Shown here in pieces: positions 526 to 58,617 of a stretch of 64,000 nt of DNA (its first letter is position 1; the number at the start of each line of letters is the position of its first letter). This DNA is from an uncultured Planctomycetales bacterium (GTDB taxonomy: Bacteria; Omnitrophota; Gorgyraeia; Aquiviventales; Aquiviventaceae): the NCBI GenBank assembly GCA_964556925.1, contig CAZKXY010000002.1, positions 1,953-65,952 on the forward strand, written 5' to 3'. The notes beneath the pieces are model-generated. The model was not told the origin of the DNA. It saw only the letters and a program-made list of their open reading frames with translations, and ran no database searches. A program made the position numbers and the translations under genes.

Positions 526-2130
526 ATGGCGAAGGTGCTGTTCGTGAATCCGCTGATTCGGGAGGAGGACGACCCCAAGCACGTCCCCATCGGCCTGGCC
601 CTGATGGCGGCCGTCGCCATGCGCCAGGGACACCGCGTGCAGGTCTACGACGCGAATGCCTGGCGGCTCGGGGATGAGGCGCTCATCGAGGCGCTGCGCG
701 CGGACCGGTGGGATGCCGTCGCCACCGGCTCGATCACTACGGCGTACGGGTACATCAAGAAGATCGTGCAGTTCGCCAAAGCGCATGCGCCGCAGGCGGT
801 CGTCATCCTCGGGGGCGGCGTCCTCACGAGCATGCCCATCGAGATCATGACCTTGCTGCCCCAGGTCGATGTCGGGGTGGTGGGGGAGGCGTTCGTGACG
901 TTTCCGGAGCTGCTCGCCAAGGTGGACCAGGGGGATCACGACTGGTCCGTCATCCAGGGGGTCGCCTACCGCGACGCCGCGGGGCAGATCCAATTGACCG
1001 ACATCCGGCCGCTCATCAGCATGCAGGAGATGGACCGGCTGCCCTATCCCGCCTGGGAGCTGTTCCCGCAGGACATCTACTGGAAGAACAGCAAGCTGCT
1101 CTACAGCGAGGAGAACTTCACGGCCAAGCGCCGGCTCGACATCAACACGAGCTACGGCTGCTCGCTGATCTGCCGCTTCTGCTACCACCTGGGCATCGCG
1201 GGGGACCTCAGCTACACGAAGAACGAGCATGGCCAGACCGATGTGGAGTTCACCTACAAGCGCGACATCCGCTGGCACAGCGCACGCTACGTCGTGGACA
1301 TGGTGAAGTACGCCCGGGACCGGTTCGGCATCGACTTCGTGCTCTTCCTGGACGAAAACCTCATGACGATGAATTCGTACAGCCACTGGAAGTGGCTGCC
1401 GGAGATCGCCGACCTGTGGATCAAGGAAGGGCTCCAGCCCATCTGCCGCCGGCAGAAGCGCCCGCACGACGCCAGGTGCAAAGGCATCCACTGGGGCGGA
1501 ACCAGCCACGCCACGCTGGTGCGCCAGGACCTCCTGGGCCTGCTCTATGAGTCGGGCTGCAGCCAGCTCTGCTACGGCTACGAGTCGTTTTCCGACCGGA
1601 TCCTGAAAAACCTCGGCAAGGGCACGACCGCCGCGCTCAATGAGCGCTCGCTGAAGTGGACGATCGACGCCGGGATCCGCCCCATCCCGAACCAGATCAT
1701 CGGGTTCCCGGATGAGTTCTTCGACAGCATCCGGGACAGCGTCGCCGCGTGGGAGCGGATGGGGATCAACGTCGTGCCGTTCTTCGCCACGCCGTACCCC
1801 GGCTCCGAGTGGTACTACACCTACAAGGACCGGATCCTCGAGCAGTACCAGGGGGATCTGGAGGCGTTTCTCCTCGACCTCGGTGACGCGACCAAGATCA
1901 CCGCGGTCATCAGCGAGAACTTCAATGCGGTGGAGCTGCTCGGGCTGCGCGAGCTCATGGTGCACCGCGATCTCAAGCGGATCAACGAGTATGAACAGCA
2001 ATGGCGCACGCGGCACGGGGAGCCGTTCATCCCGGATTTCCGGCGGTTCCCCCGGGTGCCGGCGAAGCAGCTCCGGGTGCTGCAGGAGCAGACGGCCACG
2101 CCGCCGGCTGCCGTTGCGGTGACAGGATGA
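526..2130 (+). CDS. B12-binding-domain radical SAM enzyme (class B, no. 1)
   Basis: N-terminal Rossmann-like cobalamin-domain pattern (KVLFVNP...PIGLALMAAVAMRQGHRVQVYDAN) followed by the CX3CX2C cluster motif YGCSLICRFCYH. The ATG lies 4 nt after the upstream stop. Confidence 0.85.
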   Translation: MAKVLFVNPLIREEDDPKHVPIGLALMAAVAMRQGHRVQVYDANAWRLGDEALIEALRADRWDAVATGSITTAYGYIKKIVQFAKAHAPQAVVILGGGVLTSMPIEIMTLLPQVDVGVVGEAFVTFPELLAKVDQGDHDWSVIQGVAYRDAAGQIQLTDIRPLISMQEMDRLPYPAWELFPQDIYWKNSKLLYSEENFTAKRRLDINTSYGCSLICRFCYHLGIAGDLSYTKNEHGQTDVEFTYKRDIRWHSARYVVDMVKYARDRFGIDFVLFLDENLMTMNSYSHWKWLPEIADLWIKEGLQPICRRQKRPHDARCKGIHWGGTSHATLVRQDLLGLLYESGCSQLCYGYESFSDRILKNLGKGTTAALNERSLKWTIDAGIRPIPNQIIGFPDEFFDSIRDSVAAWERMGINVVPFFATPYPGSEWYYTYKDRILEQYQGDLEAFLLDLGDATKITAVISENFNAVELLGLRELMVHRDLKRINEYEQQWRTRHGEPFIPDFRRFPRVPAKQLRVLQEQTATPPAAVAVTG

Positions 2131-2567
2131 AGCTGGATCATCTCGGGGTGGCGGTCGAACGGCTGGAGGCCAGCCTGGCGTACTACCGGGAAGACCTGGG
2201 CTATTCCTGGGATGGCATCATTCTGGTCGATCCGCTCCAGCAGGCACGAGCGGCGTTTGTCCGCCCGCCTGAGGGGGGGATCCGGTTTGAGCTGCTGGAG
2301 CCGATCGGTCCGGATTCTCCGCTGGCCGGCTGGCTGAAGCGCCGGACGAGATTCTTCCATGTGTGCTATCTGGTGGACAATCTCCCCCAGGCGCTCGAGC
2401 GGTTCGTGGCGCAGGGCAGCCGCGTCGTGTCCGAGCCGAAGCCGGCCGTGGCGTTTCAGGGGCGTTGCGTCGCGTTTGTGTTTACCAGGGACCGGGAACT
2501 CATCGAGCTGGCCGAAGCGGCTACCGCGCCAGCCGTGTCGCAGGAGGCGGTGCATGGACGAGGTTGA
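2127..2567 (+). CDS. VOC-family (glyoxalase / methylmalonyl-CoA-epimerase-like) protein
   Basis: MKLDHLGVAVERLEASLAYY... and FHVCYLVDNL are typical VOC beta-alpha-beta-beta-beta module signatures. The ATG at 2127 forms an ATGA overlap with the upstream stop. The ORF-track start at 2001 is rejected because it lies inside the preceding gene. Confidence 0.75.
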   Translation: MKLDHLGVAVERLEASLAYYREDLGYSWDGIILVDPLQQARAAFVRPPEGGIRFELLEPIGPDSPLAGWLKRRTRFFHVCYLVDNLPQALERFVAQGSRVVSEPKPAVAFQGRCVAFVFTRDRELIELAEAATAPAVSQEAVHGRG

Positions 2568-2814
2568 ACAGCGGGTTCAGCCGGGGCTGGAACAGCGGCT
2601 GCAGGCGGTCTTTCAGTCCGTGTTCCATTTGAGCGGGGCGCCGCTACAGGATGACTGGGGGCCCGGCACGCTGGAGGGCTGGGACTCGATGGGGCACCTC
2701 ACCTTGCTGGCCGCCCTGGAGCAGGAGTTCAAGATCAAGTTGGAGATGGACGACCTCATCGCGATGGACAGCGTCAAGGCGATCAAGGAACTGCTGGTCA
2801 AGAAAGAGGTCTGA
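2554..2814 (+). CDS. acyl carrier protein
   Basis: 86 aa. LEGWDSMGHLTLLAALEQEF contains the phosphopantetheine-attachment DS(M/L) motif in helix-II context. The ATG at 2554 overlaps the VOC gene by 14 nt. Confidence 0.8.
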   Translation: MDEVEQRVQPGLEQRLQAVFQSVFHLSGAPLQDDWGPGTLEGWDSMGHLTLLAALEQEFKIKLEMDDLIAMDSVKAIKELLVKKEV

Positions 2815-2816
2815 AG

Positions 2817-4355
2817 TTGTTGATCACCGATTGGATCTGCAGCGCCCGTGCGCGCCAGCCGTCCGCGCCGGCCATCATCGATGGCGAGCGCTGTTTCACC
2901 TATGAGGCGTGCGCCCGTGAGATCGCGAAGCTGGCCTGGGCGCTGAAGGGCCGCGTGCCGGCCGGGGCACGGGTGGGGCTCCTGATGGGCAATTGCGCCG
3001 AGCTGCTCTTCGCCCAGTATGCGGTGGTCAGCCTCGGCGCCATCGCCGTGCCGATCAACGTCGCCCTCCATGCGCAGAGGGTGGAGGAGATCCTGCGTGA
3101 TGCCGGGGTCAGCGTGGTGCTCGCGCAGGATCGGGCGCTGCGCCGGTATCAGGCGGTGCTGGAAGCGTGCCCGGACATTGCGTTGGTGGTGCAGGACGGG
3201 CGGGAGGCGGCGCTCGGCAAGGAGACGGCGTTGTGGGACACCCTGGAGGAACGCGCCGACTTCGAGCCGCGCAGGGATGTCAGCGAGCAGGCGACGGCGC
3301 TCATCCTGTACACCACCGGCACGACCGGCCGGCAAAAGGGGGTGGAGTTGACCCACGCCAACTTGATGGCGGCAACCCGCAACATCAACGAGGTGATGGG
3401 CCTCACGGAAGGCGAGCGGGAGGTCGTCTCGCTGCCGTTGACGCATTCGTTTGGCCTGGGACGGACGCGGTGCCTCTTGGAGACGCGAAGCACGGTGATC
3501 ATCGAGTCCGGGTTGGACCGGCCGGACAAGGTGCTCTCGAGCTGCCTGCGCCATCAGGCGACCGGGCTGGCGTCGGTGCCGGCGGGGTTTGCCATCTTTC
3601 TGTCGCGGTATGCTGACCTGCTGAACCAATGCGCTGGCTTCTTGCGGTACGTGGAGATCGGCAGCGCCCCCATGCCGCTGGCGCACAAGCGGGCCTTGAT
3701 GGAGGCGCTGCCGCGCACCCGGCTGTTCATGCACTACGGGCTGACTGAAGCCTCCCGGTCGGCGTTCATCGAATTCCATGCCGAGCCGGACCGGCTGGAG
3801 TCGGTAGGCAAGCCAGCGGTCAACGTGTCTATCAAGGTGGCGGATGACCAAGGACGCGCCGTGCCGCCTGGCCAGGTCGGGACGATCTGGATCGCCAGCG
3901 ACACGGTCATGAAGGGGTACTGGAACCGGCCGGAGGACACGGCGCGCGCGCTGGTGGACAGCTGGCTGATGACCGGCGACCTCGGATCGCTGGATGAGCA
4001 GGGCTATCTGACGCTCTGGGGCAGGACCCAGGACCTCATCAATGTGGGCGGGTACAAGGTACTCGCACGCGAGGTCGAAGACGTGCTGACGGGCCACCCG
4101 CGCGTGGAGGAATCCGCGGTGGTGGGGGTGCGGGATCCCTTGGAGATTTCGGGCGAGGTCGTGAAAGCGTTTGTCGTCCGGAAGGACGACGGGGTGTCGG
4201 CGGAGGAGCTGAAGCGCCATTGCCTCAAGCATCTGGAGCCGTGGAAGGTGCCCGCCATCGTGAGCTTCGTGCCCCGGCTACCGAAGACCGGCTCAGGCAA
4301 GGTCCAGAAGCAGCTGCTGGCCGACGCACTCGATGCCATGGCGAGGGCGGCATGA
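2817..4355 (+). CDS. ANL-superfamily acyl-CoA/acyl-ACP ligase (AMP-forming)
   Basis: AMP-binding core LILYTTGTTGRQKGVELTHANL, hinge TGDLG, and C-terminal catalytic Lys motif PKTGSGKVQK. TTG start 2 nt after the ACP stop. Confidence 0.85.
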   Translation: MLITDWICSARARQPSAPAIIDGERCFTYEACAREIAKLAWALKGRVPAGARVGLLMGNCAELLFAQYAVVSLGAIAVPINVALHAQRVEEILRDAGVSVVLAQDRALRRYQAVLEACPDIALVVQDGREAALGKETALWDTLEERADFEPRRDVSEQATALILYTTGTTGRQKGVELTHANLMAATRNINEVMGLTEGEREVVSLPLTHSFGLGRTRCLLETRSTVIIESGLDRPDKVLSSCLRHQATGLASVPAGFAIFLSRYADLLNQCAGFLRYVEIGSAPMPLAHKRALMEALPRTRLFMHYGLTEASRSAFIEFHAEPDRLESVGKPAVNVSIKVADDQGRAVPPGQVGTIWIASDTVMKGYWNRPEDTARALVDSWLMTGDLGSLDEQGYLTLWGRTQDLINVGGYKVLAREVEDVLTGHPRVEESAVVGVRDPLEISGEVVKAFVVRKDDGVSAEELKRHCLKHLEPWKVPAIVSFVPRLPKTGSGKVQKQLLADALDAMARAA

Positions 4356-5560
4356 TCGGCGCAGCCCTCGAACGCGAGCGGCTGCCGGCCGCTGGACTGG
4401 ATGCCATCCGGTGGCTGGTGCCGCGCCTGGTCCTGCCTCGACATGTCTGTTTTCGAGCCGGGTCGTTATCGATGCTGAAGCAGCTTGGCGCCCGCCGCGC
4501 GTTCGTGATCACTGGCCCTTCCTCGGCCAGGGCCTCTGGCGCCCTGGACAAGGTGCTCGGCCATGTGGTGAGCGGCGGGGGCGAGGCGGTCTGTTATGAC
4601 CGGATCGCCGGGGAGCCGACGTGGTCCAGGATTCGCGAAGGGGTGGAGGCCATGCGGGCGGCTGGACCGGACTGGATCATCGGGATCGGCGGGGGCTCGG
4701 TGCTGGATGCGGCCAAGCTCATGTATGCGTGGTACGAGCACCCTGCGCTGGAGCCGGCGGCCTGCGCGCGGCCCTTCAGCATCCCGCCGCTGCCGCGCCG
4801 CAGCCGGCTGGGGCTGATCCCGACCACCGCCGGCACGGGGTCCGAGGTGAGCTGCTCGGCCATCGTCCAGAATAGCGAGCGGCGGATCAAAGAGATCATC
4901 GTGTCGCACGAGCTGTTGCCGGATGTCGCGCTCCTGGACCCCTTGCTGACCGTCAGCCTGCCGGCGCCCATGACGGCCGCGACCGGGATGGATGCGTTGA
5001 CGCACGCCATCGAAGCCTTCGTGTCCCTGGCGCACAACCCGTTCACGGATGCGTGCGCCGCGGCGGCGGTGCGCCTCATCCTGTGCCACTTGCCGCCGGC
5101 CGTCCAGGATGGCAGCCGCCTGGAGGCGCGCGATGGCATGCTCCACGCCGCCTGCCTGGCCGGCATCGCCCAGAGCAATGTGTCTGTCGGGCTCGTCCAT
5201 GCGATCGCGCACAAGCTGGGGGCGATGGCGATGAGCCCGCTCCCGCACGGGGTGCTCAACAGCCTGATGCTGCTTCCGGTGATGCGGTTCAACGCCCAGG
5301 CGCAGCCCGGGCGGTACGAGGCGCTGGCCGTCGCATCCGGCTTCAGCGGATTCGAAGCGCTGGTGTCCGCGATCGAGCGCCTCCAGCAGGGGGCGCGGAT
5401 GCCCCGGCGCCTGAGCGCGGCCGCGCCGGCAGAGGAGCTGCTGGGACGCATGGACGAGCTCTGCCGGGACATCCTGGCGGATCCGTGCGCGCGGACCAAC
5501 CCGCGGTGCGCTTCGGCGGAGGACATCGCGCGGCTGCTCGAAGCCGCGCTGGCGGAGTGA
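4352..5560 (+). CDS. iron-containing (group III) alcohol dehydrogenase
   Basis: GIGGGSVLDAAKLM (GGGSxxD NAD motif) and metal-His region DALTHAIEAF. The ATG at 4352 forms an ATGA overlap with the ligase stop. Confidence 0.8.
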   Translation: MIGAALERERLPAAGLDAIRWLVPRLVLPRHVCFRAGSLSMLKQLGARRAFVITGPSSARASGALDKVLGHVVSGGGEAVCYDRIAGEPTWSRIREGVEAMRAAGPDWIIGIGGGSVLDAAKLMYAWYEHPALEPAACARPFSIPPLPRRSRLGLIPTTAGTGSEVSCSAIVQNSERRIKEIIVSHELLPDVALLDPLLTVSLPAPMTAATGMDALTHAIEAFVSLAHNPFTDACAAAAVRLILCHLPPAVQDGSRLEARDGMLHAACLAGIAQSNVSVGLVHAIAHKLGAMAMSPLPHGVLNSLMLLPVMRFNAQAQPGRYEALAVASGFSGFEALVSAIERLQQGARMPRRLSAAAPAEELLGRMDELCRDILADPCARTNPRCASAEDIARLLEAALAE

Positions 5561-7983
5561 TGGACTCGATCGAGGCCTTGTTGAGGCAGCCGCCGTTTGC
5601 GGCCGGTCCGGAGGAGAAAACGGCGCTGTTGGTGCCCGCGGTCCAGGCGGCGCTGCAACGTCATTACGAGCATTGCGCCGCCTTCAGGACCGTGTGCGAC
5701 ACGCGCAGGTTCGCGCCTGCGCGCGGTGTCTCTGATCTTGCCGCGATCCCGTATCTGCCGGCGCAGTTCTTCAAGCAGATGGCGCTCAGCACGAACGACG
5801 GGGGCGGGCCGACCGTGACGCTGCGGTCCAGTGCGACGACCTCCGGGGTCCCGAGCCAGATCGTCGTGGACGCCGTGACGGCCAGGCGGCACAAGCTCGC
5901 CGTGGTGTCGGTCCTCAAGAGTTACCTGGGGCCGGAGCGCCTGCCGTTCGTGGTGTTTGACGCCGACCCGTCGTTGCAGGGGCTGGCGCCCTCATCGCTT
6001 ACCGCGCGGGGGGCGGCGATCCGAGGGTTCCTCCTGGCCGCCAACGCGGTGGACTATGTGATGGTCGAAGAGGGGGAGGGCGGCCTCCGGCTGGACACAG
6101 AGCGGCTCGGGCGGACCCTGGCCCAATTCGGAGACGGCGAGCGGATGTGTCTCTTTGGCTTCACCGCACCCCTGTACCAGGCCATGCGCCAGGTCCTGGA
6201 AGGGAGCATGCGGTACTGGCTGCCGCAGGCGACGGTGCTGCATATCGGCGGCTGGAAGAAGCTGCAGCAGCAGGCCGTGACGAAATCCGCGTTCGCCGCG
6301 CTCATGGGCGAGACGGTTGGCGTGCCGCCCGACCGGGTGATCGACGTGTACGGATTCACCGAGCAGATCGGCATGATCTACCCGGACTGCGAGCAGGGGG
6401 TCAAGCATGCCCCGGTGTTCGCCGAGGTCATCGTGCGCGATCCGCGCACGCTCCAGCTGGCGGACGACGGCCAGGAGGGGCTGCTGCAGTTCATCTTCCC
6501 CGTCCCGCACAGCTACCCCGGGGTGTCGGTCATCACGGATGACGTGGGCCGGATTGTTGGGAGAGACCGGTGCGGCTGCGGGCGCCGCGGCACCGCCTTT
6601 GTCGTCTTGGGACGCGCGCCGGCGGCCGAGCCGCGCGGGTGCGGAGACCTGGCCCCGGCGCCTGCGGCGCTCGGGCCGCGTGACGCCATGGCGAGGCATG
6701 CCTTGTCGCAGGCCACGACTGAGCGCGAGCTCGCGCTCGACGAGCTGATCCAGGAGCTGCGCCGACACGCCGACGCGGTCCATGCGCTGGAGAGCGACCA
6801 GATCCTCGGCCTGCTCGGCGAGCTGCGCCGCGTCCTGGCTGACCCCGCCCACCCGCTGCACCAGCAGCTGCGGCCGCTCGGGCTGCCGTTCCTCTTGCGC
6901 TGGCTCGCGCCTGAGCGGCTTGCAGCCCAGTTGGATCTCGCGATGCACGGCACGCGCCGCTATCTGGATGCCTTTTTGCCGTCCGGGGACCGGCTGCTCC
7001 ATGCGCAGCCGCGCGGGCTCGTGGTGCACTGGATCGCCGGGAATGTGCCGCTCCTAGGCGTGTTCTCGCTCGTGCAGGCCTGGCTGACGAAAAACGTCAG
7101 CCTGATCAAGGTGCCGGCCGACTGGCCGGGCGTGATCCCCGCGCTGCTGGATACACTCTCGCAGGTGACGTATCTCGCGGCGGACGGCCGGGCGACCTCC
7201 GGGGTGGCGCTCGCGCGCGGCGCGGCGGCACTGTATGTCGATCGCGATGACCGCGCCGCCCAGGAAACACTCTCTCTGGCGGCGGATGCGCGGGTGGCGT
7301 GGGGCGGCCGCGAGGCCATTGAAGCGATCCAGGCGCTGCCGAAGGTGCCCGGCGTGGAAGACATCCTGTTCGGGCCCAAGTACTCGTACATGGTGATCGG
7401 CAGGGAACGTCTGGCGGCAGGGGCCGGGGTGCTCGACCTGGCCACGCGCGCCGCGTTCGACGTCTGCCTCTTCGACCAGCAGGGGTGCAACTCGCCGCAC
7501 ACCATCTTCGTCGAGCGGGGCGGGGCGGTGAGCCCCCGCGAGTTCGCCGCCAGGCTGGCCGAGGCCATGGAGCGGGTGTGCGCCACGATTCCGAAGGCTC
7601 CGCCCAGTCCGCAGGACGTCTCACGCCTGCTCACGCTGCGGGCGACGTATGACGTGCGCGGCCTCGCGCATTACTCCCCGGGGCCGGAGTGGACGGTGCT
7701 GTATGGGGAGGATGACGAGGGGTTGGCCGAGGCGTGCGGCGGCCGCGTGGCGTTCGTCCGGCCGATCGCGGACGCGATGGATGCGGCCGAGCTGGCCAGC
7801 CGGCGCACCCAATCGATCGGCGTGGCGTTGGACCACAGCCGCCGGATCGCGTTTGCCGAGCGGGCCACGTGGGGCGGGGCCGAACGCTGTCCCCCCGTCG
7901 GCGAGATGAGCCATTACGAATCGCCTTGGGACGGGGTCTTCATGATGGACCGGCTCGTGCGGTGGGTGACGACCTATGCGTAA
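5560..7983 (+). CDS. fused LuxE-like acyl-protein synthetase / LuxC-like acyl-CoA (acyl-ACP) reductase
   Basis: The N-terminal ~370 aa (QPPFAAGPEEKTALLVPAVQAALQRHYEHCAAFRTVC, SSATTSGVPSQIVVD, VIDVYGFTEQ, GCGRRGT) looks LuxE-like. The C-terminal ~430 aa (HWIAGNVPLLGVFSLVQAWLTKNVSLIKVP, FDQQGCNSPHTIFVE) looks LuxC-like. It is one uninterrupted frame. The ATG at 5560 shares 1 nt with the upstream TGA. Confidence 0.7.
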   Translation: MDSIEALLRQPPFAAGPEEKTALLVPAVQAALQRHYEHCAAFRTVCDTRRFAPARGVSDLAAIPYLPAQFFKQMALSTNDGGGPTVTLRSSATTSGVPSQIVVDAVTARRHKLAVVSVLKSYLGPERLPFVVFDADPSLQGLAPSSLTARGAAIRGFLLAANAVDYVMVEEGEGGLRLDTERLGRTLAQFGDGERMCLFGFTAPLYQAMRQVLEGSMRYWLPQATVLHIGGWKKLQQQAVTKSAFAALMGETVGVPPDRVIDVYGFTEQIGMIYPDCEQGVKHAPVFAEVIVRDPRTLQLADDGQEGLLQFIFPVPHSYPGVSVITDDVGRIVGRDRCGCGRRGTAFVVLGRAPAAEPRGCGDLAPAPAALGPRDAMARHALSQATTERELALDELIQELRRHADAVHALESDQILGLLGELRRVLADPAHPLHQQLRPLGLPFLLRWLAPERLAAQLDLAMHGTRRYLDAFLPSGDRLLHAQPRGLVVHWIAGNVPLLGVFSLVQAWLTKNVSLIKVPADWPGVIPALLDTLSQVTYLAADGRATSGVALARGAAALYVDRDDRAAQETLSLAADARVAWGGREAIEAIQALPKVPGVEDILFGPKYSYMVIGRERLAAGAGVLDLATRAAFDVCLFDQQGCNSPHTIFVERGGAVSPREFAARLAEAMERVCATIPKAPPSPQDVSRLLTLRATYDVRGLAHYSPGPEWTVLYGEDDEGLAEACGGRVAFVRPIADAMDAAELASRRTQSIGVALDHSRRIAFAERATWGGAERCPPVGEMSHYESPWDGVFMMDRLVRWVTTYA

Positions 7984-8698: not shown

Positions 8699-8711
8699 GT
8701 CAGGTGGTGCC

Positions 8712-13156: not shown

Positions 13157-13166
13157 GGGGGAACCC

Positions 13167-14942
13167 ATGGAGGAGCAGGGGGAAGTGAAGGGCTCGTGTG
13201 GATGCGGCTCCTGCGGCTGCGGCTCTCACGACGCCGACCAGGAGGGGGGGCACGTCACGCCGGTGCGGGTGCAGCTGCAGACAACGGCTGAAGATGGCCC
13301 GAGCAAGTTGACGCGCGTCCTGTTGATCGATATTGAACGGGATGCGCCCAATGGGGGGTGGGGGCAGCTTGATGCGAGTTGGCGGAGCCACCCGACTGGG
13401 CTCCTGTACCTGGTGTCCTTCGTCCGACAGCGGTTCCCCGATATGGAGTTCAAGGTGTTTCATACCTCAACCGTTGACAATCCCCGTGAGACCGTCAAGG
13501 CCATGATCGGGGAGTTTGCCCCTGAGCTGATCGGCCTGCGGTCGTTGTCCAGTGCCCGGGATGCGTTCATCGCCATGGCGCAATTCCTTCGCACCGTCGC
13601 CCCAGGGGTTCCCCTGATCGGCGGCGGGCCGTATCCCAACGCCTCCCCGGAGGAGTTGGTCGAGCCGCAGCTCCTCGATCTCGCCGTCATGGGGGAGGGG
13701 GAGGAAACCTTTCTTGAAATCGTCCAAGCCCTGCGCACCACCGGTCGGCTCCCCTTGGACGTCCTGGGGACGGCCGTCCTCAAGGCCGGGCAGTTTCACG
13801 TCAATCCCCCCCGCCCCTTGATGAAGGATTTGAACGTGGTGCCGTTTCCCGACTACGATCTGATTGATCTGCACGCGTACAGCAATATGGCCAACCAGGC
13901 CTTCCAAGACCTCTCCAAGAGCGCCGTGATCTGCGGCTCGCGGGGATGTCCGTACTCCTGCTTCTACTGCCATCAACTCTTCGGGAAGCAGATTCGCCGC
14001 CGCACCCCGGAGAACATCGTGGGGGAGCTGCAGTATCACGTCAATCGCGGGATCAGGAACTTCATGTTTGTCGATGACATTTTCAACGTCCCCAAGGACA
14101 AATGTAAGGACATCCTGCGGTTGGTAATCAAGGAGGTCCCGGGGATTCGACTCAACTTCCCCCAGGGCTTGCGGGCGGATCAGATGGACGAGGAGGTGCT
14201 GGACCTGTTTCAGGAGGCGGGGACGGTGCTCATGGCGCTGGCGGTGGAATCCTCCAGTGCGCGCTTGCAGAGACTGATGGGGAAGAATCTCCAGATCGAA
14301 CGCGCCCGGCGTTCGATTGAGTACGCGTCCACCCGCTTTGTGGTGACCTGCTTCTTTATCGTGGGGTTCCCGACCGAGACCTACGAGGAAGCGATGGGCA
14401 CCATTCAGTTCGCCAAGGACCTCGAATACGTCTCGCAGCCGGTCCTCTCCGTCCTGCGGGTGTATCCGGGGACGTTCCTGTACGACCTGTTGAAACCCAC
14501 CAAAGAAGAGACCCAGCGGCTGCTCGAACAGCAAGCGCAACCCTATACGCCCACCCTCTTTCGGGAGACCCCGTTTTATGGGGATGTTTTTCCGCCGGAG
14601 AAGGTGCCGCTGCGGGGGACCGACATTCGGAAGATTCGCTGGGAGTGGATGATGCGGATCGTGAGAAACCCGCAGCGAATGGCCAAGAGCCATGCGATGC
14701 TCAAGCAGCATTTTACCTACGAGGAGATCATTGAGTTCTATCGGAACTTCTACGACAAGCGCACGTTTGGACACGACGATTACATGGCCATCGAGAACGT
14801 CCAGAAGCAGGTCGAACAAGGTGAAGCGAGCAAGAATGGCGAAGCGAGCAAGAACCGTGAGAATATCGACCCCCTCTTCGCCGAGGCAGAGTCATCCGGC
14901 GCCCGGTGGACCACGACGGGGTGGCGGGTGGTCAAGGAGTGA
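13167..14942 (+). CDS. B12-binding-domain radical SAM enzyme (no. 2) with Cys/Gly-rich N-terminal extension
   Basis: B12-domain pattern (VLLIDIE...PTGLLYLVSFVRQRFPDMEFKVF) and cluster motif GSRGCPYSCFYCHQ. The ATG at 13167 follows a GGGGGG SD-like run. The N-terminus is MEEQGEVKGSCGCGSCGCGSHD. The C-terminus carries an 18-bp x2 repeat (GEASKN GEASKN, 14820-14855). Confidence 0.85.
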   Translation: MEEQGEVKGSCGCGSCGCGSHDADQEGGHVTPVRVQLQTTAEDGPSKLTRVLLIDIERDAPNGGWGQLDASWRSHPTGLLYLVSFVRQRFPDMEFKVFHTSTVDNPRETVKAMIGEFAPELIGLRSLSSARDAFIAMAQFLRTVAPGVPLIGGGPYPNASPEELVEPQLLDLAVMGEGEETFLEIVQALRTTGRLPLDVLGTAVLKAGQFHVNPPRPLMKDLNVVPFPDYDLIDLHAYSNMANQAFQDLSKSAVICGSRGCPYSCFYCHQLFGKQIRRRTPENIVGELQYHVNRGIRNFMFVDDIFNVPKDKCKDILRLVIKEVPGIRLNFPQGLRADQMDEEVLDLFQEAGTVLMALAVESSSARLQRLMGKNLQIERARRSIEYASTRFVVTCFFIVGFPTETYEEAMGTIQFAKDLEYVSQPVLSVLRVYPGTFLYDLLKPTKEETQRLLEQQAQPYTPTLFRETPFYGDVFPPEKVPLRGTDIRKIRWEWMMRIVRNPQRMAKSHAMLKQHFTYEEIIEFYRNFYDKRTFGHDDYMAIENVQKQVEQGEASKNGEASKNRENIDPLFAEAESSGARWTTTGWRVVKE

Positions 14943-14972
14943 CGTGGCGCGCGAGGGAACCAGCGATCGGGG

Positions 14973-17105: not shown

Positions 17106-18670
17106 CGGTCGTGACCCTTGAGCGATTGGGGCAGGCGCTGCACGAGATCCGGCAGCGGTGTCCTGATCTGCCGCTGTTGGCGATCCGCTGGATGCACATC
17201 AAGCATCCGCTGCATGAGACGCAAGAGCGGCTCTTGCAGCGCGAGGGACACGCGGCGTGGCAGGTCGCGGCCTGGCGGGGTCGTCTGACGCGTGTCCGCC
17301 GGCTGGGGCAGTGCGTGGTGTACGCGTGCCTCGTGAGCGTCCGGCTCGCGCGGATGCGTTGGCTGGTGCGGCGGCAGATGGCCATGCTGGCACGCCGGCC
17401 GTTTGATGTCCTGGCCAGGACGTGGTGCTTCGGCACCGAGCGGCCGCACGATGATCGGGACTTCTACTATGGCGACCTCCAGCAGCGGCTGGCGCAGCGG
17501 AACGTCCAGATGCTGCTGCTGTGCGGCGATGTCTCTGGGAAGGTTCGGGGCGGGTTTGCCAGGGGCCAGGTGGCCGTGTCGCCACTCGCCCGGATGCCGG
17601 ACCTGTGCCTTGTGCATCCGCTGGCCCCATTCCACATGATGGCCAAGCAGCTGCTGACGTGCTGGAGGCTGTGGCGGCTCCGGCGGAAGGAAGCGGATCC
17701 GTTGATCCGGGCGATCCTCGCGTTCGCCGGCCGCGATTGCCTCGCCCCGGACACGGCGCTGACAGGCCTGTTGTTCTGGGTCGGGAGGGCCGCCGCCCGC
17801 ACCTGGGGCCCCAAGGCGGTCGTGACGTTCTATGAAGGCCAGGCGTATGAGTCCTGTCTCTGGCGGGGCGTCAAAGCGGCGCAGGCGTCCTGCCAGACGG
17901 TGGGGTATCAGCATACCGTCCTGCTGCGCCACAACCTCGCGCTGCTGGGCGCCGAGGATCGTCGAGCCGTCGTCGCGCAGCCTGACGTCGTGCTCTGTCT
18001 CGGGCCGGAAACCCAGGCCATGCTCCGGCCCAGCCATCCGCGCGCGAAGCTCGTGGTGTTCGGGACGTTCCGGCAGCTGCCGGACGCAGCGCAACGCCAT
18101 GCGCCCCGCCCGCAGGTCCGGGTGGCGCTCGTCGTGCCGGAATCGGGCCTCATCCCTGAGTCGCAGGCGCTCTTCCAGTTCACGCTGCGCGCGGCCCGCG
18201 CCCTGCCTGACTACCGGTTCCTGTTCCGGTGCCACCCCATCATGCCGTTCGCCCGCCTGCGCCCGCTGCTCCCGGAGCCCCCCGAGGAGCTGCCCAACTT
18301 GGAGGTCTCGCAGACCGCCTCCATCGCGGACGACTTCGCCCGCTCGTCGGTGGTGCTCTACCGCGGCTCCTCCTCGGTCCTCTATGCGGTCCTGCACGGG
18401 CTCAAACCCGTCTACGTCCGCCTCGCCCGCTGCCCGGACGGCGACCCGCTCTTCGAGCTGGACGGGTGGCGGGAGCGCGCGTCCTCCGTCGACGAGCTCG
18501 CGCAGGTGTTGCGCCGCTACGCGGCGGTCGCTGCGGAGGACGCGCGGCGTCAGTGGCGCGACGCGGCGCGCTATGTCGAGCGCTACACGACCGCGGTGAG
18601 CGAGGCGTCCGTGGAGGCGTTGTGCTCCGCCGTCGGCCTGTCATCGGCTGGGGCCCCATGCGGTGCCTGA
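17102..18670 (+). CDS. uncharacterised surface-carbohydrate-locus protein, paralog A (of 53441-55036)
   Basis: Collinear similarity to 53441-55036: LERLGQALHEIRQRCPDLPLLAIRWMHIKHPLH vs LERLAEVLATVQRQCPELAVLAIRWMHLRHPLH; DFYYGDLQQRLA..LLLCG in both; GYQHT in both. ATGA overlap with the upstream gene. Confidence 0.4.
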   Translation: MTVVTLERLGQALHEIRQRCPDLPLLAIRWMHIKHPLHETQERLLQREGHAAWQVAAWRGRLTRVRRLGQCVVYACLVSVRLARMRWLVRRQMAMLARRPFDVLARTWCFGTERPHDDRDFYYGDLQQRLAQRNVQMLLLCGDVSGKVRGGFARGQVAVSPLARMPDLCLVHPLAPFHMMAKQLLTCWRLWRLRRKEADPLIRAILAFAGRDCLAPDTALTGLLFWVGRAAARTWGPKAVVTFYEGQAYESCLWRGVKAAQASCQTVGYQHTVLLRHNLALLGAEDRRAVVAQPDVVLCLGPETQAMLRPSHPRAKLVVFGTFRQLPDAAQRHAPRPQVRVALVVPESGLIPESQALFQFTLRAARALPDYRFLFRCHPIMPFARLRPLLPEPPEELPNLEVSQTASIADDFARSSVVLYRGSSSVLYAVLHGLKPVYVRLARCPDGDPLFELDGWRERASSVDELAQVLRRYAAVAAEDARRQWRDAARYVERYTTAVSEASVEALCSAVGLSSAGAPCGA

Positions 18671-19677
18671 TTTTCGGCTACGGCTATATGGGCCAGATCC
18701 GGTACCGCGCCTTGCGCGGCCATCCACAGGTGCGGGACATCAAGATCATCGATCCCGCGGTGGATCCGGAGGCCTGCGGGCTGGACGGGATCGTCTTGCC
18801 GGCGGAGGCGCAGGTCCCGTGGGACGCCGTCGACGCGGTGTTCGTCTGCACGCCGAACCACGTCACGCCCGAGCTGTGCATCGCGGGCCTGACGCACTGC
18901 GGCCGGGTGTTCTGCGAGAAGCCCCCGGGGCGGAACTGGGACGACTTCTGCCGCATCGCGGACGCCGCCGAGCGCGTCCCCAGCTCCACGCTGATGTTCG
19001 GCTTCAATCACCGCCTGCACCCCTCGGTCCAGGCGGCCAAGGCCATGATCGGGGACGGCGGGTTGGGCGAGATCCTGTACGTCAAGGGCACCTACGGCAA
19101 GTCGGGGGGGACCCGGTACCGAGAGGGCTGGCGCAGCAAACCCGAGGTGGCCGGCGGGGGCATCCTGCTCGACCAGGGGATCCACATGCTTGACCTGTTC
19201 CTCATGCTGCTGGGCCCGCTCACGGTCGTTGACGCGGTGCTGGTCGACGCGTTCTGGGGCTTCGGGCTCGAGGACAACGCGTTCGTGCTGTTGAAGTCCG
19301 AGCGCAACGTGCCCGCGTTCCTGCATTCGTCCGCGACCCTCTGGAAGCACACCTTCCGCCTGGAGATCGGCTGCCGCAACGGCTACATGACCGCCAGCGG
19401 CCTGCTGTCGCAGACCGGCAGCTACGGCCGCGAGCAGCTCGTCATCGGCAAGCGCCAGTTCGAAGACGAGGCCTTGGCGCTCGGCAACCCGCGGGAGGAG
19501 ATCATCCATTTTGACCGGGACGAGTCCTGGGATCGGGAAGTCCAGGAGTTCCTCGCCGCCATCACAGAGGGCCGGCCGGCGGCCCACGGCACCCTCGAGG
19601 AGGCGCGGCGCGTGATGGAGCTCGTCCGGGATATCTACGCGGTCTCGGAACGGCATGTGGCCGCGAGGAGGGCCTAA
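18658..19677 (+). CDS. Gfo/Idh/MocA-family NAD(P)-dependent oxidoreductase (no. 1)
   Basis: MRCLIFGYGYMGQIRYRAL (N-terminal Rossmann), VFCEKPPG (EKP motif), and a C-terminal alpha/beta domain. Confidence 0.75.
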   Translation: MRCLIFGYGYMGQIRYRALRGHPQVRDIKIIDPAVDPEACGLDGIVLPAEAQVPWDAVDAVFVCTPNHVTPELCIAGLTHCGRVFCEKPPGRNWDDFCRIADAAERVPSSTLMFGFNHRLHPSVQAAKAMIGDGGLGEILYVKGTYGKSGGTRYREGWRSKPEVAGGGILLDQGIHMLDLFLMLLGPLTVVDAVLVDAFWGFGLEDNAFVLLKSERNVPAFLHSSATLWKHTFRLEIGCRNGYMTASGLLSQTGSYGREQLVIGKRQFEDEALALGNPREEIIHFDRDESWDREVQEFLAAITEGRPAAHGTLEEARRVMELVRDIYAVSERHVAARRA

Positions 19678-19682
19678 GAGCC

Positions 19683-20675
19683 ATGTGGTCCATCGAGACC
19701 GATCACGTCGTCCCGCTCTGCTTCGTCAAGCCCTTCGAGCAGCTCATGCCCTATCGCGAGCGGTGCCTGACGGAGGCGCGGCAAGCCGCTCGAGCGGGAA
19801 CCCGACGCCGGGAGCGGTCGCCCGTCACGGGCGCCGCGCTCCAGCCGCTGGGGCAGGTGGAGGGGTTCGAGTACCTCCGATGCCCTGACACCGGCAGCGT
19901 GTTCCTGGCGGAGCTGCCCCCCTCGGCCACCTGGATCGAGGTCTTGGGCGCCGTGAACCGCACCCGGCGTTCCGCCGAAACCTTTCACGCGGGCATCGCG
20001 GAGCAACGCCAGGAGCACGTCCACAGCCCGAAGCTGGAGTGGATCCGGAGCAGCTTGCGGATGCAGGGCATGGCCCGGCCGGCCGCGCTGGAAGTCGCGA
20101 CGCCGCCGAGCGAAGCCACCAGGCTGCTGGAGGACTGCGGCGCGTTTTCCCGCGTGACGACGGTCAATGAGATGGAGCTGGCCGCGGGACGGCGGCCGAC
20201 GGGGCTCGACGGGATCGGGGCCGCGGTGCTGTTTGAATCGCTGGACCGGGTCGACGACCCGGCCTCCCTGCTGGAGGCGGTCCGGGGCTGTCTCGCGCCC
20301 GGCGGCCTGCTCTTCGTGACGGCGCTGGTGTGCTCGGGATTTGACGTGGCGGTCCTGGGCCTGCGCAACGTCTACCTGTACCCCCCGGATCGGACGAACT
20401 GCTTCAGCCTCAGCGGGCTGGAAGAGCTCTTGCGACGGGCGGGGTTCGCCCTGCTGGAAGTGAGCACGCCCGGGGTGCTGGACGTCGAGATCGTGCAGGC
20501 GCATCTGCGCGCGGATCCGTCGCTGCCGCTCTCGGACTTCGAGCGGCAGCTCCTCGCGGCGGATGGCCAGACGCAGCAGGCCTTCCAGACCTTCTTGCAG
20601 CAGCACCGGATGAGCTCGTTCGCGCGCATCATCGGCAGGACACGGGAAGGGGACGGCCACAGGGAGGGGTCATGA
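19683..20675 (+). CDS. class-I methyltransferase-fold protein with degenerate SAM motif I
   Basis: AAVLFESLDRVDDPASLLEAVRGCLAPGGLLFVTA matches post-II/III methyltransferase motifs. The expected GxGxG motif I is replaced by LEVATPPSEATRLL. Confidence 0.4.
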   Translation: MWSIETDHVVPLCFVKPFEQLMPYRERCLTEARQAARAGTRRRERSPVTGAALQPLGQVEGFEYLRCPDTGSVFLAELPPSATWIEVLGAVNRTRRSAETFHAGIAEQRQEHVHSPKLEWIRSSLRMQGMARPAALEVATPPSEATRLLEDCGAFSRVTTVNEMELAAGRRPTGLDGIGAAVLFESLDRVDDPASLLEAVRGCLAPGGLLFVTALVCSGFDVAVLGLRNVYLYPPDRTNCFSLSGLEELLRRAGFALLEVSTPGVLDVEIVQAHLRADPSLPLSDFERQLLAADGQTQQAFQTFLQQHRMSSFARIIGRTREGDGHREGS

Positions 20676-22234
20676 TCGAGCCGCAGGAGTTCCGCGTGCT
20701 GGTGGTCTATCCAAACCTCAGCATGATGCTGACGCCGTCCTATGCGGTGGCCTTGTTCACGGCCATCCTCAACGAGCAGGGCTATCGGGTGGAGCTGTTC
20801 GACTGCACGCCCTACCTGGCCAAGTATGAGTTCTTGCACGAGCCGCTGCCCGTCACGCGGGCGAACAAGCTGCTCAACAGCCGCAAGTTCGACGCGCTGT
20901 CCCTCTGGGGCGCGCCCAAGACCGACCTGGCGGGGGATTTCGCCAAGGCGCTGGACCGCTACCGGCCGCATGCGGCCATCTTCTCCACGCTGGTGGAGGA
21001 CACCTGGCCGCAGGCCAGGGAACTGCTCGATGTCCTCGCCCACTACCCCCAGATCAAAACGCTCATCGGCGGCGTGTTCTCGACGATGGCCCCGCAGGTG
21101 GTGAGCGAAGCCCCCCATGTCCAGTGCCTGGGGCTCGGGGAGGGGGAAGCCACCATCGTGGAGTTCTGCGAAACCGTCCGCCACGGAGAGGCGCCCGCCC
21201 ATCTGCAGGGGACCTGGGTGAAGGATCAGGACGGCGTGGTGATCCCCAATCCGCCGCGGCCGCTCGTCGACATCAACCGGGTGATTCCGGACTTCTCGCT
21301 CTTTGACGAGCGCCGGTTCCTCCGCCCCCTGGGGGCGCGGATCTGGAAGGCGATCCCGCTGGAGACCTATCGGGGCTGCCCCTACACGTGCACCTTCTGC
21401 AACTCGCCCACCCAGGTGAAGCTGGCCAAGGAAAAGCAGCAGGGCTTCTTCCTTCGCCGGAAGACCATGGAGACGCTCCGGCGGGAAATCCGGACGATGA
21501 TCGAGCGGTACGAGCCGGAGTTTTTCTACATCAATGATGACGCGTTCCTCGCCAGGCCGAAGGAGGAGGCGGCGGCGTTCGTCACGATGTACGAGGAGTT
21601 CAAGCTCCCGTTCTGGTTCCAGACGCGCTTCGAGGACATCGACGCCGAGAAGCTGGAGTGGCTGGCGCGGGTCGGCTGCTACCGGATCTCCTTCGGGCTG
21701 GAGCACGGCAACGAGCGGTACCGGCAGGAGAAGCTGCGGCGGAAGATGACGAACGCATTCATCCTCCAGCAGTCCAAGATCGTCGCCGCCTCGGGCATCC
21801 CCTATACGCTGAACGTCCTGGTGGGCATGCCCTATGAGACCCGGGAGCTGCTGTTCGACAGCATCCAGCTCGTCCGGGAGATCGGCACCTACGACGCGCT
21901 GAGCGTGAACGTGTTCGTCCCGTACCACGGCACGCCCTTGCGCGAGATGGCGATCCGGGAAGGGTGGCTGGACCCGGCCCTCCAGACCACCTCGGTGATT
22001 TCGAAGTCGCTGCTGACCATGCCGAAGCCCTATCTGCAGCCTGATGAGATCCTCGGCTTGCAGCGGACCTTCCCCCTGTACGCGAAGCTGCCGGCATCCC
22101 GCTATCCGGAGATCGCGCGGGCGGAGCAGTTCGACGAGGAGGGCGAAGCGCTCTTCGAGGCGCTCTCGCGCGAGTTCTACCAGCTGGTCTACGGGAAGGA
22201 CGAAGCGGAGCGCATGCTCACCTACGCCGGATGA
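20672..22234 (+). CDS. B12-binding-domain radical SAM enzyme (no. 3)
   Basis: FRVLVVYPNLSMMLTPSYAVALFTAILNEQGYRVELFD (B12 domain) and YRGCPYTCTFCNS (CX3CX2C). ATGA overlap with the upstream gene. Confidence 0.85.
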   Translation: MIEPQEFRVLVVYPNLSMMLTPSYAVALFTAILNEQGYRVELFDCTPYLAKYEFLHEPLPVTRANKLLNSRKFDALSLWGAPKTDLAGDFAKALDRYRPHAAIFSTLVEDTWPQARELLDVLAHYPQIKTLIGGVFSTMAPQVVSEAPHVQCLGLGEGEATIVEFCETVRHGEAPAHLQGTWVKDQDGVVIPNPPRPLVDINRVIPDFSLFDERRFLRPLGARIWKAIPLETYRGCPYTCTFCNSPTQVKLAKEKQQGFFLRRKTMETLRREIRTMIERYEPEFFYINDDAFLARPKEEAAAFVTMYEEFKLPFWFQTRFEDIDAEKLEWLARVGCYRISFGLEHGNERYRQEKLRRKMTNAFILQQSKIVAASGIPYTLNVLVGMPYETRELLFDSIQLVREIGTYDALSVNVFVPYHGTPLREMAIREGWLDPALQTTSVISKSLLTMPKPYLQPDEILGLQRTFPLYAKLPASRYPEIARAEQFDEEGEALFEALSREFYQLVYGKDEAERMLTYAG

Positions 22235-28535: not shown

Positions 28536-28548
28536 GCGGGCTGATGGA

Positions 28549-30965: not shown

Positions 30966-31018
30966 CATGAAGCCGAGACTTGCGGAGCGAAGCGAACGCA
31001 AGTCTCTGGCTGAAGGTC

Positions 31019-31118
31019 ACCCCACCACCTGTCTGCCTCCGCCGAAGGCGGAGGCTCGAGCGGCGGACAACGGTGACCGGTGCCGCCGGTGGCGGGACCG
31101 GAGGACAGGTGGTGGGGT
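31019..31118. repeat. 100-bp palindromic (MITE/REP-like) element with 15-bp perfect terminal inverted repeats
   Basis: ACCCCACCACCTGTC (31019-31033) and GACAGGTGGTGGGGT (31104-31118) are exact reverse complements. Internal hairpin GCCTCCGCC-GAA-GGCGGAGGC at 31035-31055. Lies in the 222-bp gap upstream of gmd. Confidence 0.8.
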
Positions 31119-31160
31119 TCAATTCGCACAGCAACGTACGTCGCCCTCCGGGCTCCGTAA

Positions 31161-32944
<1,784 letters not shown>

Positions 32945-58613: not shown

Positions 58614-58617
58614 CGCG

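Follow-up and report, generated by a model that had tools for sequence, protein, structure and literature searches.

The stretch of DNA studied here (64,000 nucleotides of contig CAZKXY010000002.1, assembly GCA_964556925.1, positions 1,953 to 65,952 of the forward strand; referred to as the window in the following) is a one-strand island of glycan-biosynthesis genes that exceeds 60 kb and stems from an uncultured bacterium of high GC content. It contains three genes for radical S-adenosylmethionine (SAM) enzymes with an N-terminal B12-binding domain, which we name rSAM1, rSAM2 and rSAM3. A sequence-only reading of positions 526-22234 had presented them as cobalamin-type enzymes of one sugar locus and had proposed, together with two TylCIII-type C-methyltransferases, up to five C-methylations on the glycan or its acyl decoration. 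With regard to the genes themselves this reading stands: the three open reading frames (ORFs) are real, lie on the plus strand at the coordinates given in Table 1 and show normal coding statistics, and the surrounding sugar locus is very large and includes a predicted legionaminic-acid-type pathway.

All three proteins carry PF02310 (B12-binding) followed by PF04055 (Radical_SAM) above the Pfam cut-offs of 32.1 and 29.5 bits, respectively. The two domains span residues 18-129 (61.4 bits) and 206-405 (47.7 bits) in rSAM1, 74-185 (43.9 bits) and 258-416 (77.7 bits) in rSAM2, and 50-164 (34.7 bits, just over the cut-off) and 231-398 (61.4 bits) in rSAM3. PF04055 together with a CX3CX2C motif places each protein in the radical SAM superfamily, and the position of PF02310 before the radical SAM domain gives each the class B architecture, marginally so for rSAM3. 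The motifs quoted earlier, CSLICRFC in rSAM1 (C212/C216/C219), CPYSCFYC in rSAM2 (C261/C265/C268) and CPYTCTFC in rSAM3 (C236/C240/C243), are present, and their three cysteines are invariant among 121 members of each family. That the proteins are not close paralogs was likewise borne out, e.g., by pairwise BLASTP identities of 22-24%. Moreover, hidden Markov models (HMMs) built from the 120 best homologs of each protein scored their own family at 686 bits or more and the other two families at 108 bits or less. The three genes are members of three unrelated, uncharacterized orthologous families with a predicted class B architecture, and the N-terminal domains of all three families are rich in invariant residues, which would suit a cofactor site.

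The family of rSAM1 is 63-89% identical among its 120 best matches (Omnitrophota, Rokubacteria, Chloroflexota and others). Taking one genome per species, relatives were found in at least 95 species, and 80 loci from different species were fetched. These loci span at least 12 phylum-level groups, with carriers among the Omnitrophota, Methylomirabilota/Rokubacteria, Chloroflexota, Nitrospirota, Elusimicrobia, the candidate phyla radiation (CPR), a Nitrosotalea archaeon and Alphaproteobacteria including Pelagibacteraceae; one complete genome, that of Kordiimonadales IMCC3096, is among them. In the four contexts read first, rSAM1 directly followed a gene for an MptE-like protein of about 340 amino acids (aa), in loci with NeuB and cytidine monophosphate (CMP)-sugar synthetase genes. 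Across the survey, 77 loci reach far enough upstream to be informative; 76 of them contain an MptE-like homolog, which lies directly upstream of rSAM1 on the same strand in 65, and most rSAM1 loci contain homologs of NeuB and/or CTP_transf_3. A third partner is an ORF of about 66 aa, present in 72 of the 80 loci (L012-L091) and directly before the MptE-like gene in 68. Its consensus consists of M..FLKGNY, a variable charged linker and FE.xAL..LGGSI.FV.K...W, and it matches no Pfam or NCBIfam family. In relatives the ORF was located at L001:8801-8971 (where it is not called as a gene), L002:8797-9000 and L004:8781-8987, which corresponds to a position upstream of the window start.

The MptE-like gene directly upstream of the rSAM1 ortholog in L001 carries PF01973 (DUF115; 52 bits), and the C-terminal domain of these proteins defines a family of small size (271 representatives in a set of 1.84 billion proteins). 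Maf-type DUF115 proteins are nonulosonic-acid transferases and glycosylate proteins. Because the MptE-like partner is related to these transferases, rSAM1 is proposed to edit a nonulosonic acid close to its transfer. The ~66-aa protein, the MptE-like/DUF115 protein and rSAM1, the last in order, form a conserved trio within legionaminic/nonulosonic-acid loci, and rSAM1 would introduce a radical edit, likeliest a C-methylation, into the nonulosonic acid, while this is a CMP-sugar or when it is transferred.

Some further features of this family deserve mention. A Rosetta-stone search with the MptE fragment of the window found no fusion of an MptE-like protein with rSAM1. Long MptE-like members carry inteins instead: Hint, Intein_splicing and LAGLIDADG domains lie within the MptE-like domain in all ten long members scanned (603-1247 aa; P0432, P0433, P0446, P0448, P0473, P0488, P0490, P0494, P0502 and P0505). 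Inteins are uncommon in glycan-pathway proteins and point to strongly kept active-site motifs. In rSAM1 itself, six further residues (C307, H314, C318, H322, H328 and C345) are invariant among 121 sequences. This Cys/His set (window 1444-1560) lies in an insertion inside the radical SAM barrel, where it could provide a further site for a metal. One Nitrospirota metagenome-assembled genome (MAG) departs from the trio rule: its rSAM1-like gene (L007:16642-17563; 58% identical) is preceded by the small ORF, but not by an MptE-like gene; it lies about 7 kb downstream of the rSAM3 cassette of that genome.

This cassette is the context of rSAM3, whose family members share 58-88% identity along their entire length. 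Its order is 710-aa protein, 522-aa protein, GFO oxidoreductase, Methyltransf_23 protein, rSAM3 and SIS_2 protein, with an HpcH/HpaI aldolase, a HAD phosphatase and a mannonate-oxidoreductase-like short-chain dehydrogenase/reductase (SDR) near the core. The order is kept with rSAM3 homologs of at least about 70% identity, plus a few at 59-64%, and was found in MAGs of Omnitrophota and Nitrospirota as well as in about 15 metagenome loci, the latter with rSAM3 homologs at 70% identity or more. Homologs of the 710-aa and 522-aa proteins, neither of which has a Pfam or NCBIfam match, lie upstream of the cassette in L006, L007, L093, L096, L098-L102, L148, L149 and L169, and the downstream cassette genes are co-conserved with rSAM3 in L007, L095, L099, L109, L130 and L169. 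In L007, a transaldolase/FSA-type aldolase and a cytidylyltransferase directly adjoin the cassette, and NeuB is absent from its vicinity; we therefore predict that a distinct ulosonic-type sugar is produced via an aldolase and activated with CMP. The cassette would build this second, aldolase-derived ulosonic-type sugar, and rSAM3 would edit its carbon skeleton, by either C-methylation or an AprD4-like dehydration. A candidate activator of the sugar in the window is the cytidylyltransferase fusion at 34730-36703, which scores 201 bits with PRK13368 (cut-off 255) and 195 bits with PRK05450.1-5 (cut-off 193). Relatives of rSAM3 with about 60% identity also occur on four IMG/VR contigs of 39-284 kb (L172-L175) and in L008, among small ORFs and genes for NUDIX, peptidase M15, PMM and cupin proteins; those on the viral contigs may be phage-borne auxiliary sugar-modifying genes.

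Two close relatives aside, homologs of rSAM2 are 45-52% identical and about 500 aa long. They lack both the Cys/Gly-rich N-terminus of the window protein (CGCGSCGCGSH; window 13167-13260) and its C-terminal tail (DPLF..GARWTTTGWRVV; window 14820-14942), extensions which, among the sequences examined, are common only to P0121 of GCA_023247285.1. In the latter, the CGCGSCGCGSH motif is duplicated. An FkbH-type loader and an acyl carrier protein (ACP) are found in all four independent rSAM2 contexts (L009, L010, L011 and L184/L185), joined by MBOAT in three, by an AlgX-type acyltransferase and an AMP-ligase in two each, and by a methylmalonyl-CoA-epimerase-like VOC protein in one. The equivalent set of the window (carrier protein, AMP-ligase and VOC protein) lies 8-11 kb upstream of rSAM2. 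A VOC gene accompanies both the ACP of the window and that of L010, where it stands beside FkbH, ACP and methyltransferase genes. The VOC gene of the window, which was overlooked by the sequence-only reading despite lying within its range, has TIGR03081 as best NCBIfam match (63 bits, below the cut-off of 115).

In loci L006 and L109, LegC (DegT) and the 710-aa gene are immediate neighbors without an intervening rSAM2, and rSAM2 was not found in eight cassette loci that extend 6 kb or more upstream. Since it is missing from the loci of these distant relatives, rSAM2 is regarded as a lineage-specific addition, which would have been inserted between LegC and the next module in this lineage only. 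The carrier proteins and FkbH/AMP-ligase loaders of its relatives point to a predicted acyl decoration: rSAM2 may modify a small carrier-protein-bound acyl group that later decorates a sugar, similar to TokK and CysS, with C-methylation as the likeliest edit. The acyl decoration that had been suggested for the enzymes as a group is hence plausible for this one. The VOC gene overlaps the stop codon of rSAM1; its similarity to methylmalonyl-CoA epimerase and the occurrence of such a gene in the L010 set hint at an alpha-branched carrier-bound acyl group. More speculatively, the LuxE-LuxC fusion (two separate genes in the relative L001) and the iron-containing alcohol dehydrogenase could supply a hydroxy-acyl unit, e.g., 4-hydroxybutanoyl, for N-acylation.

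With moderate confidence, we favor a reading in which the three enzymes belong to three separate sub-pathways and act on three substrates, not in series, so that each module receives its own radical edit. Each sub-pathway would have its own rSAM enzyme and partner genes. The data establish the domain architecture, the distinctness of the families and the kept gene partnerships; substrates, use of cobalamin and reaction types are predictions. All three rSAM genes occur in the same order in two relatives (contig JAHFGU010000001.1 of GCA_023247285.1 and a 34.7-kb contig in ENA), and since the arrangement is kept in both, their combination is a stable feature of the lineage. In more distant genomes the modules are found apart, with only rSAM1 at locus L002 and only the rSAM3 cassette at locus L006. 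Close homologs were not found in cultured phage and plasmid collections.

The remainder of the window is in line with an island serving several sugars (Table 1). GC content is about 69%, nearly all genes lie on the plus strand with a third-codon-position GC of 0.80-0.92, and Pfam and NCBIfam annotation of about 55 genes showed that the glycan island covers nearly the whole window; its closest relatives are groundwater MAGs. The 5' part consists of a legionaminic-acid-type block, preceded by the carrier protein, AMP-ligase, alcohol dehydrogenase and LuxE-LuxC genes. For the legionaminic-acid pathway (GDP-GlcNAc route), which involves LegB, LegC, LegH/NeuD, LegG/NeuC and a PtmE-like nucleotidyltransferase, the LegC, NeuC and NeuD families score above cut-off and LegB just below. 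The route also calls for a NeuB-type synthase and a cognate CMP-synthetase; in the syntenic relative L001 their genes occupy positions upstream of where the window starts, i.e., outside it. Downstream, two GDP-mannose-dehydratase paralogs accompany the first TylCIII-type enzyme and a dehydratase/RmlD pair the second, together with several GT2/GT4 transferases, class I methyltransferases, two cytidylyltransferases and two AsnB-like amidotransferases. Both TylCIII-type enzymes (PF08421 plus PF08484) thus exist as proposed, but beyond the range of 526-22234 for which they had been invoked. Among the annotated genes of the window, no cob/btu, photosynthesis or hopanoid genes were found.

Table 1. 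Features of the window relevant to the three radical SAM enzymes and their surroundings.
Feature	Position	Strand	Basis or remark
MptE-like/DUF115 gene, C-terminal 169 aa, cut by the window start	13-522	+	88% identical to C-terminal half of the PF01973 gene in L001
rSAM1, B12-binding-domain radical SAM enzyme, 534 aa, CSLICRFC	526-2130	+	Pfam
VOC/glyoxalase-family protein, 146 aa, methylmalonyl-CoA-epimerase-like	2127-2567	+	92% identical to L001 glyoxalase gene
Acyl/peptidyl carrier protein	2554-2814	+	PF00550 PP-binding, 24.6 bits (cut-off 20.8); 85% identical to L001 ortholog
AMP-forming acyl ligase, likely carrier-protein loader	2817-4355	+	PF00501, PF13193
Iron-containing alcohol dehydrogenase	4352-5560	+	PF00465, PF25137; 4-hydroxybutyrate dehydrogenase NCBIfam 222 bits, below cut-off
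LuxE-LuxC fusion, acyl-protein synthetase plus acyl reductase, 807 aa	5560-7983	+	PF04443, PF05893
Legionaminic-acid-type block, five genes	7976-13156	+	Pfam and NCBIfam
NeuD/PglD N-acetyltransferase	7976-8698	+	TIGR03570, 171 bits (cut-off 161)
NeuC/LegG	8712-9908	+	TIGR03568, 437 bits (cut-off 236)
CBS-nucleotidyltransferase	9893-10966	+	PF00571, PF00483
LegB-like dehydratase	10951-11946	+	TIGR04180, 436 bits (cut-off 475)
LegC aminotransferase	11912-13156	+	TIGR04181, 462 bits (cut-off 420)
rSAM2, B12-binding-domain radical SAM enzyme, 591 aa, CPYSCFYC	13167-14942	+	Pfam
Two soluble proteins without family, 710 aa and 522 aa	14973-18670	+	Homologs 37-58% identical upstream of cassette
GFO/IDH/MocA oxidoreductase, rSAM3 cassette partner	18658-19677	+	Pfam; kept adjacency
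Methyltransf_23 protein, 330 aa, rSAM3 cassette partner	19683-20675	+	Pfam; kept adjacency
rSAM3, B12-binding-domain radical SAM enzyme, 520 aa, CPYTCTFC	20672-22234	+	Pfam
SIS_2 GmhA-like isomerase	22250-22864	+	Pfam/NCBIfam
Membrane protein, 8 hydrophobic segments	22872-24659	+	Hydrophobicity
HpcH/HpaI pyruvate aldolase	24656-25429	+	Pfam/NCBIfam
HAD phosphatase	25413-26060	+	Pfam/NCBIfam
SDR	26047-26790	+	Pfam/NCBIfam
GDP-mannose-4,6-dehydratase paralog	28231-29607	+	Beside TylCIII-type 1
TylCIII-type sugar C-methyltransferase 1	29361-30965	+	PF08421 45.5 bits, PF13489, PF08484 163 bits
GDP-mannose-4,6-dehydratase paralog	31173-32174	+	gmd TIGR01472, 425 bits (cut-off 415)
KdsB-like cytidylyltransferase fused to D-2-hydroxyacid dehydrogenase	34730-36703	+	PF02348, PF00389, PF02826
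4,6-dehydratase-like SDR, flanks TylCIII-type 2	42705-43748	+	NCBIfam
TylCIII-type sugar C-methyltransferase 2	44205-45446	+	PF08421 72.5 bits, PF13489, PF08484 157 bits
RmlD-like reductase, flanks TylCIII-type 2	45713-46618	+	NCBIfam

Apart from these features, the segment 26790-28230 has no plus-strand ORF with typical third-position GC, and a long ORF at 26247-28535 has no Pfam match. A 900-aa PMT_2/TPR/PKD protein (48796-51498) is a possible glycan or protein mannosyltransferase-like enzyme. The two AsnB-type amidotransferases lie at 50895-53444 and 58579-60483, and a pair of DAHP synthase and shikimate dehydrogenase genes (61527-63713) may mark the 3' end of the island.

As for the reaction types, the sequences do not reveal the chemistry of rSAM1-3. 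Against the BchE model TIGR02026, rSAM1, rSAM2 and rSAM3 score 86.9, 105.4 and 80.3 bits (cut-off 481). The best scores with other curated models are 118 bits for PhpK (rSAM2; cut-off 600), 106 bits for BzaD (rSAM2; cut-off 450), 91 bits for ApyD (rSAM1; cut-off 750) and, for rSAM1, 80 bits with rSAM_ocin_1 (cut-off 282); HpnJ gave 66-87 bits (cut-off 578) and the MgmA model TIGR04014 gave 41-84 bits (cut-off 360). The cut-offs for Sden_1168 P-methyltransferases, HpnR, KedN5 and TsrM (TIGR04428) were likewise not reached by any of the three, with scores below the best ones for PhpK, BzaD and ApyD, and the AprD4 model NF033070 gave 75.6 bits for rSAM2, 56.3 bits for rSAM3 and no match for rSAM1 (cut-off 500). 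Placement by HMM, suggested earlier as a check on methylation, hence assigned the proteins to no BchE-like clade, but to no methylase clade either.

Comparison with solved structures gave a similar picture. A single-sequence search of PDB sequences returned no match for rSAM1, and for rSAM2 and rSAM3 it returned AprD4 first (E 4e-17 and 2e-15; 3e-19 and 1e-17 with the family profiles), then MgmA (9CCB) and TokK; the family profiles added CysS, TsrM and OxsB. The AprD4 alignments are limited to the radical SAM core, from about AprD4 residue 197, and with the family profiles the N-terminal domains instead align to MgmA, TokK, OxsB and CysS, all of them cobalamin binders, through the GG...GEGE region. 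Folds were compared by AlphaFold2 models for rSAM1 and rSAM3 (mean predicted local distance difference test scores of 86.4 and 85.9), and by family profile only for rSAM2. Foldseek matched the rSAM1 model with TsrM, OxsB, AprD4, MgmA, TokK and CysS at template modeling (TM) scores of 0.53-0.60 and the rSAM3 model with MgmA, AprD4, OxsB, TsrM, CysS and TokK at 0.57-0.66, with E values of 1e-12 to 1e-19. Both models therefore match the class I B12-radical SAM fold of TokK, TsrM, OxsB and MgmA. As functional discriminators these searches were discarded, as the same six or seven structures were returned with similar scores, methylases and non-methylases alike. Searches with the N-terminal domains only (phmmer), tried to see if these domains are closer to cobalamin binders than to AprD4, gave weak matches at best (TokK E 0.008, CysS 0.27, 4Q37 0.37 and none for rSAM3) and were uninformative, and the alignments were too weak for a trustworthy mapping of the lower-axial W76 and the stacking residue W215 of TokK. 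In these low-confidence alignments, Thr72 of rSAM1 and Ser129 of rSAM2 (a position with Ile in the consensus of its family) stand opposite W76, and nothing in rSAM2 corresponds to W215.

Methylation is nevertheless the most likely activity by base rate. C-methyltransferases dominate the characterized B12-radical SAM members, most groups of the superfamily are without known function, the non-methylating members have no distinguishing structural features, and methylases have no sequence or structure signature (PMC12931638). AprD4 and ArsL fall into the same similarity network and bind no cobalamin, so that the domain can occur without the cofactor (PMC12931638). From this census, our own estimate puts methylation somewhat above even chances for each enzyme; of the methylation claim made earlier, the class B architecture stands in all three enzymes, and the step from there to methylation draws on the base rate, not on family placement.

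Several characterized systems offer parallels. GenK, GenD1, Fom3, Fms7 and MoeK5 are class B radical SAM C-methyltransferases acting on sugars and antibiotics (PMC12931638). They share with the enzymes described here the N-terminal Rossmann B12-type domain, the CX3CX2C barrel and a carbohydrate-pathway context, but no relationship at family level could be detected, and they serve secondary metabolism instead of a primary cell-surface glycan (nonulosonic or ulosonic acid); GenK, GenD1 and Fom3 are likened by architecture and context, not by direct sequence comparison. By analogy, the GFO oxidoreductase and SAM methyltransferase next to rSAM3 may be seen as resembling the gentamicin set GenD2/GenN/GenD1. 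TokK and CysS (PDB 7KDX/7KDY and 9N1B-D), iterative B12-radical SAM methylases of the same fold class, act on pantetheinyl or carrier-bound substrates, a parallel to the ACP genes near members of the rSAM2 family, and TokK residues 64-285 align with the B12-domain region of the rSAM2 family profile (E 4e-13). However, identity is about 15%, and TokK and CysS (645-681 aa) carry an extra C-terminal domain. AprD4 (PDB 6FD2), a cobalamin-independent radical SAM 1,2-diol dehydratase of apramycin biosynthesis, has a sugar substrate and reaches TM scores of 0.59-0.64 to the rSAM1 and rSAM3 models, but its match begins at the Cys motif, and its N-terminal domain is not alignable with those of rSAM2 and rSAM3. 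The only solved enzyme aligned over both domains is MgmA/QCMT (PDB 9CCB; E 4e-15 and 2e-10 with the rSAM2 and rSAM3 profiles), also the top Foldseek match for rSAM3; it differs in being an archaeal glutamine C-methyltransferase of methyl-coenzyme M reductase, i.e., in having a protein substrate. The partner of rSAM1 shares PF01973 and the NeuB/CMP-synthetase context with Maf/DUF115 proteins; in contrast to Maf (about 600 aa or more) it has only about 340 aa and is paired with a radical SAM gene and the ~66-aa ORF, a pairing not described for Maf. Finally, in Coxiella burnetii GDP-mannose is converted via a TylCIII-type enzyme to virenose, a 3-C-methyl-6-deoxyhexose (PMC3539893, PMC3204966). 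Window 28231-32174 resembles this surface-polysaccharide locus in combining a GDP-mannose 4,6-dehydratase with a TylCIII-type enzyme; the parallel is confined to the two class I C-methyltransferases of the window, and the virenose pathway has no radical SAM enzyme. C-methyl-branched sugars in a surface polysaccharide, although rare, are thus already known.

How do these findings bear on the three-module reading? A number of them weigh against it. None of rSAM1-3 reached the cut-off of a curated NCBIfam family, with scores of 10-25% of the cut-offs. The transferase role of the MptE-like partner is assumed by analogy from the Maf family, and its sole match among PDB sequences is insignificant. 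Orthologs of rSAM1 occur in Pelagibacteraceae and CPR genomes, groups that are not known to synthesize cobalamin, which weakens the case for cobalamin dependence. A few members of the rSAM3 family have no B12-binding match in precomputed Pfam, and its ~60%-identical relatives in marine metagenomes and on the four viral contigs come without the cassette. For rSAM2, the context evidence amounts to four independent loci. Furthermore, AprD4, to which the cores of rSAM2 and rSAM3 are closest among PDB sequences, is cobalamin-free and no methylase. Since AprD4 acts on a sugar diol with a partner reductase, and rSAM3 has a GFO oxidoreductase and SDRs on its flanks and a marginal B12-binding score, one or more of the enzymes, most plausibly rSAM3, could instead catalyze an AprD4-like dehydration/deoxygenation, an epimerization or a rearrangement, with no cobalamin or with cobalamin as an OxsB-like electron sink. 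The distribution of rSAM1 and the lack of features separating non-methylating members (PMC12931638) would fit this as well. We nevertheless regard it as a possible, yet unlikely alternative, as the similarity to AprD4 is confined to the core and stays far below the cut-off of its NCBIfam model, and the N-terminal domains align with cobalamin binders, retain the GG...GEGE region and hold many invariant residues.

The opposite view, that all three enzymes are cobalamin-dependent C-methyltransferases which together with the TylCIII-type enzymes place up to five C-methyls on one glycan and its acyl group, draws on the shared class B architecture, on C-methyltransferases being by far the commonest characterized activity of the superfamily (PMC12931638), and on two TylCIII-type genes co-oriented with the others in one island. 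It appears improbable to us. No methylase family placement was obtained, the three families have different, separable gene partners, and the TylCIII-type genes belong to separate sub-clusters for deoxyhexoses of the GDP or dTDP type, at a distance of 7-22 kb downstream. The comparative context thus consists of three separable modules and two separate deoxyhexose branches, and with island genes serving several sugars, methyl groups would be spread over different residues. Even our priors, taken as independent, leave it doubtful that all three are methylases. Still less probable is that the rSAM1 trio modifies peptides or proteins, with the ~66-aa protein as a substrate that rSAM1 would alter by a radical reaction and the MptE-like protein might glycosylate, so that rSAM1 would edit no sugar. 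The constancy of the small ORF with its two conserved motifs and variable linker, the protein-glycosylating role generally known for Maf-type proteins, and the presence of ApyD and rSAM_ocin_1, enzymes for peptides that are made by the ribosome and modified after translation (RiPPs), among the best NCBIfam matches of rSAM1 would agree with such a system. However, both scores are far below their cut-offs and equaled by that of BchE, the small protein has no leader/core-like pattern and no conserved Cys, with a single conserved Ser in LGGSI, and the trio lies almost always within nonulosonic-acid biosynthesis loci. Hardly any weight remains for mere co-location with the glycan genes, i.e., for a role in lipid, hopanoid, cofactor or bacteriochlorophyll-type chemistry. 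Automatic JGI names of many homologs ("anaerobic Mg-protoporphyrin IX monomethyl ester cyclase" or "YgiQ") and the appearance of BchE and HpnJ among the top NCBIfam matches might suggest it, but their low scores and the tight, often overlapping junctions with sugar genes kept across phyla nearly refute it, and the window is devoid of annotated photosynthesis and hopanoid genes.

Among the major determinants of microbial surfaces are the nonulosonic acids, with the sialic, legionaminic and pseudaminic families; the decorations known for them comprise N-acyl, O-acyl and O/N-methyl groups. We found no open-access paper that ties a radical SAM enzyme to nonulosonic-acid biosynthesis, and nothing relevant in the literature on radical SAM with legionaminic acid, DUF115, FkbH or MBOAT. 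A link of B12-type radical SAM enzymes to nonulosonic/ulosonic-acid pathways therefore appears to be undescribed, with the near-obligate rSAM1 trio as its clearest example. A bolder and rather doubtful extension would be that the trio is a so far undescribed machine for radical C-C modification, by C-methylation or chain extension, of a nonulosonic acid around its transfer. Carbon-branched sialic-acid-like sugars would then be widespread in uncultured Bacteria and some Archaea, with similar, likewise undescribed radical edits made by rSAM2 to the N-acyl group and by rSAM3 to a second, aldolase-derived ulosonic acid.

For annotation, this means that "five methylations on one glycan" should not be carried forward. 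The rSAM1 trio from at least 95 species, the ten-gene rSAM3 cassette and the carrier-protein-linked rSAM2 family provide handles on uncharacterized branches of the superfamily. If methylation holds true, carbon-branched nonulosonic or ulosonic acids would be seen here for the first time; if not, these enzymes would represent new non-methylating class B reactions.

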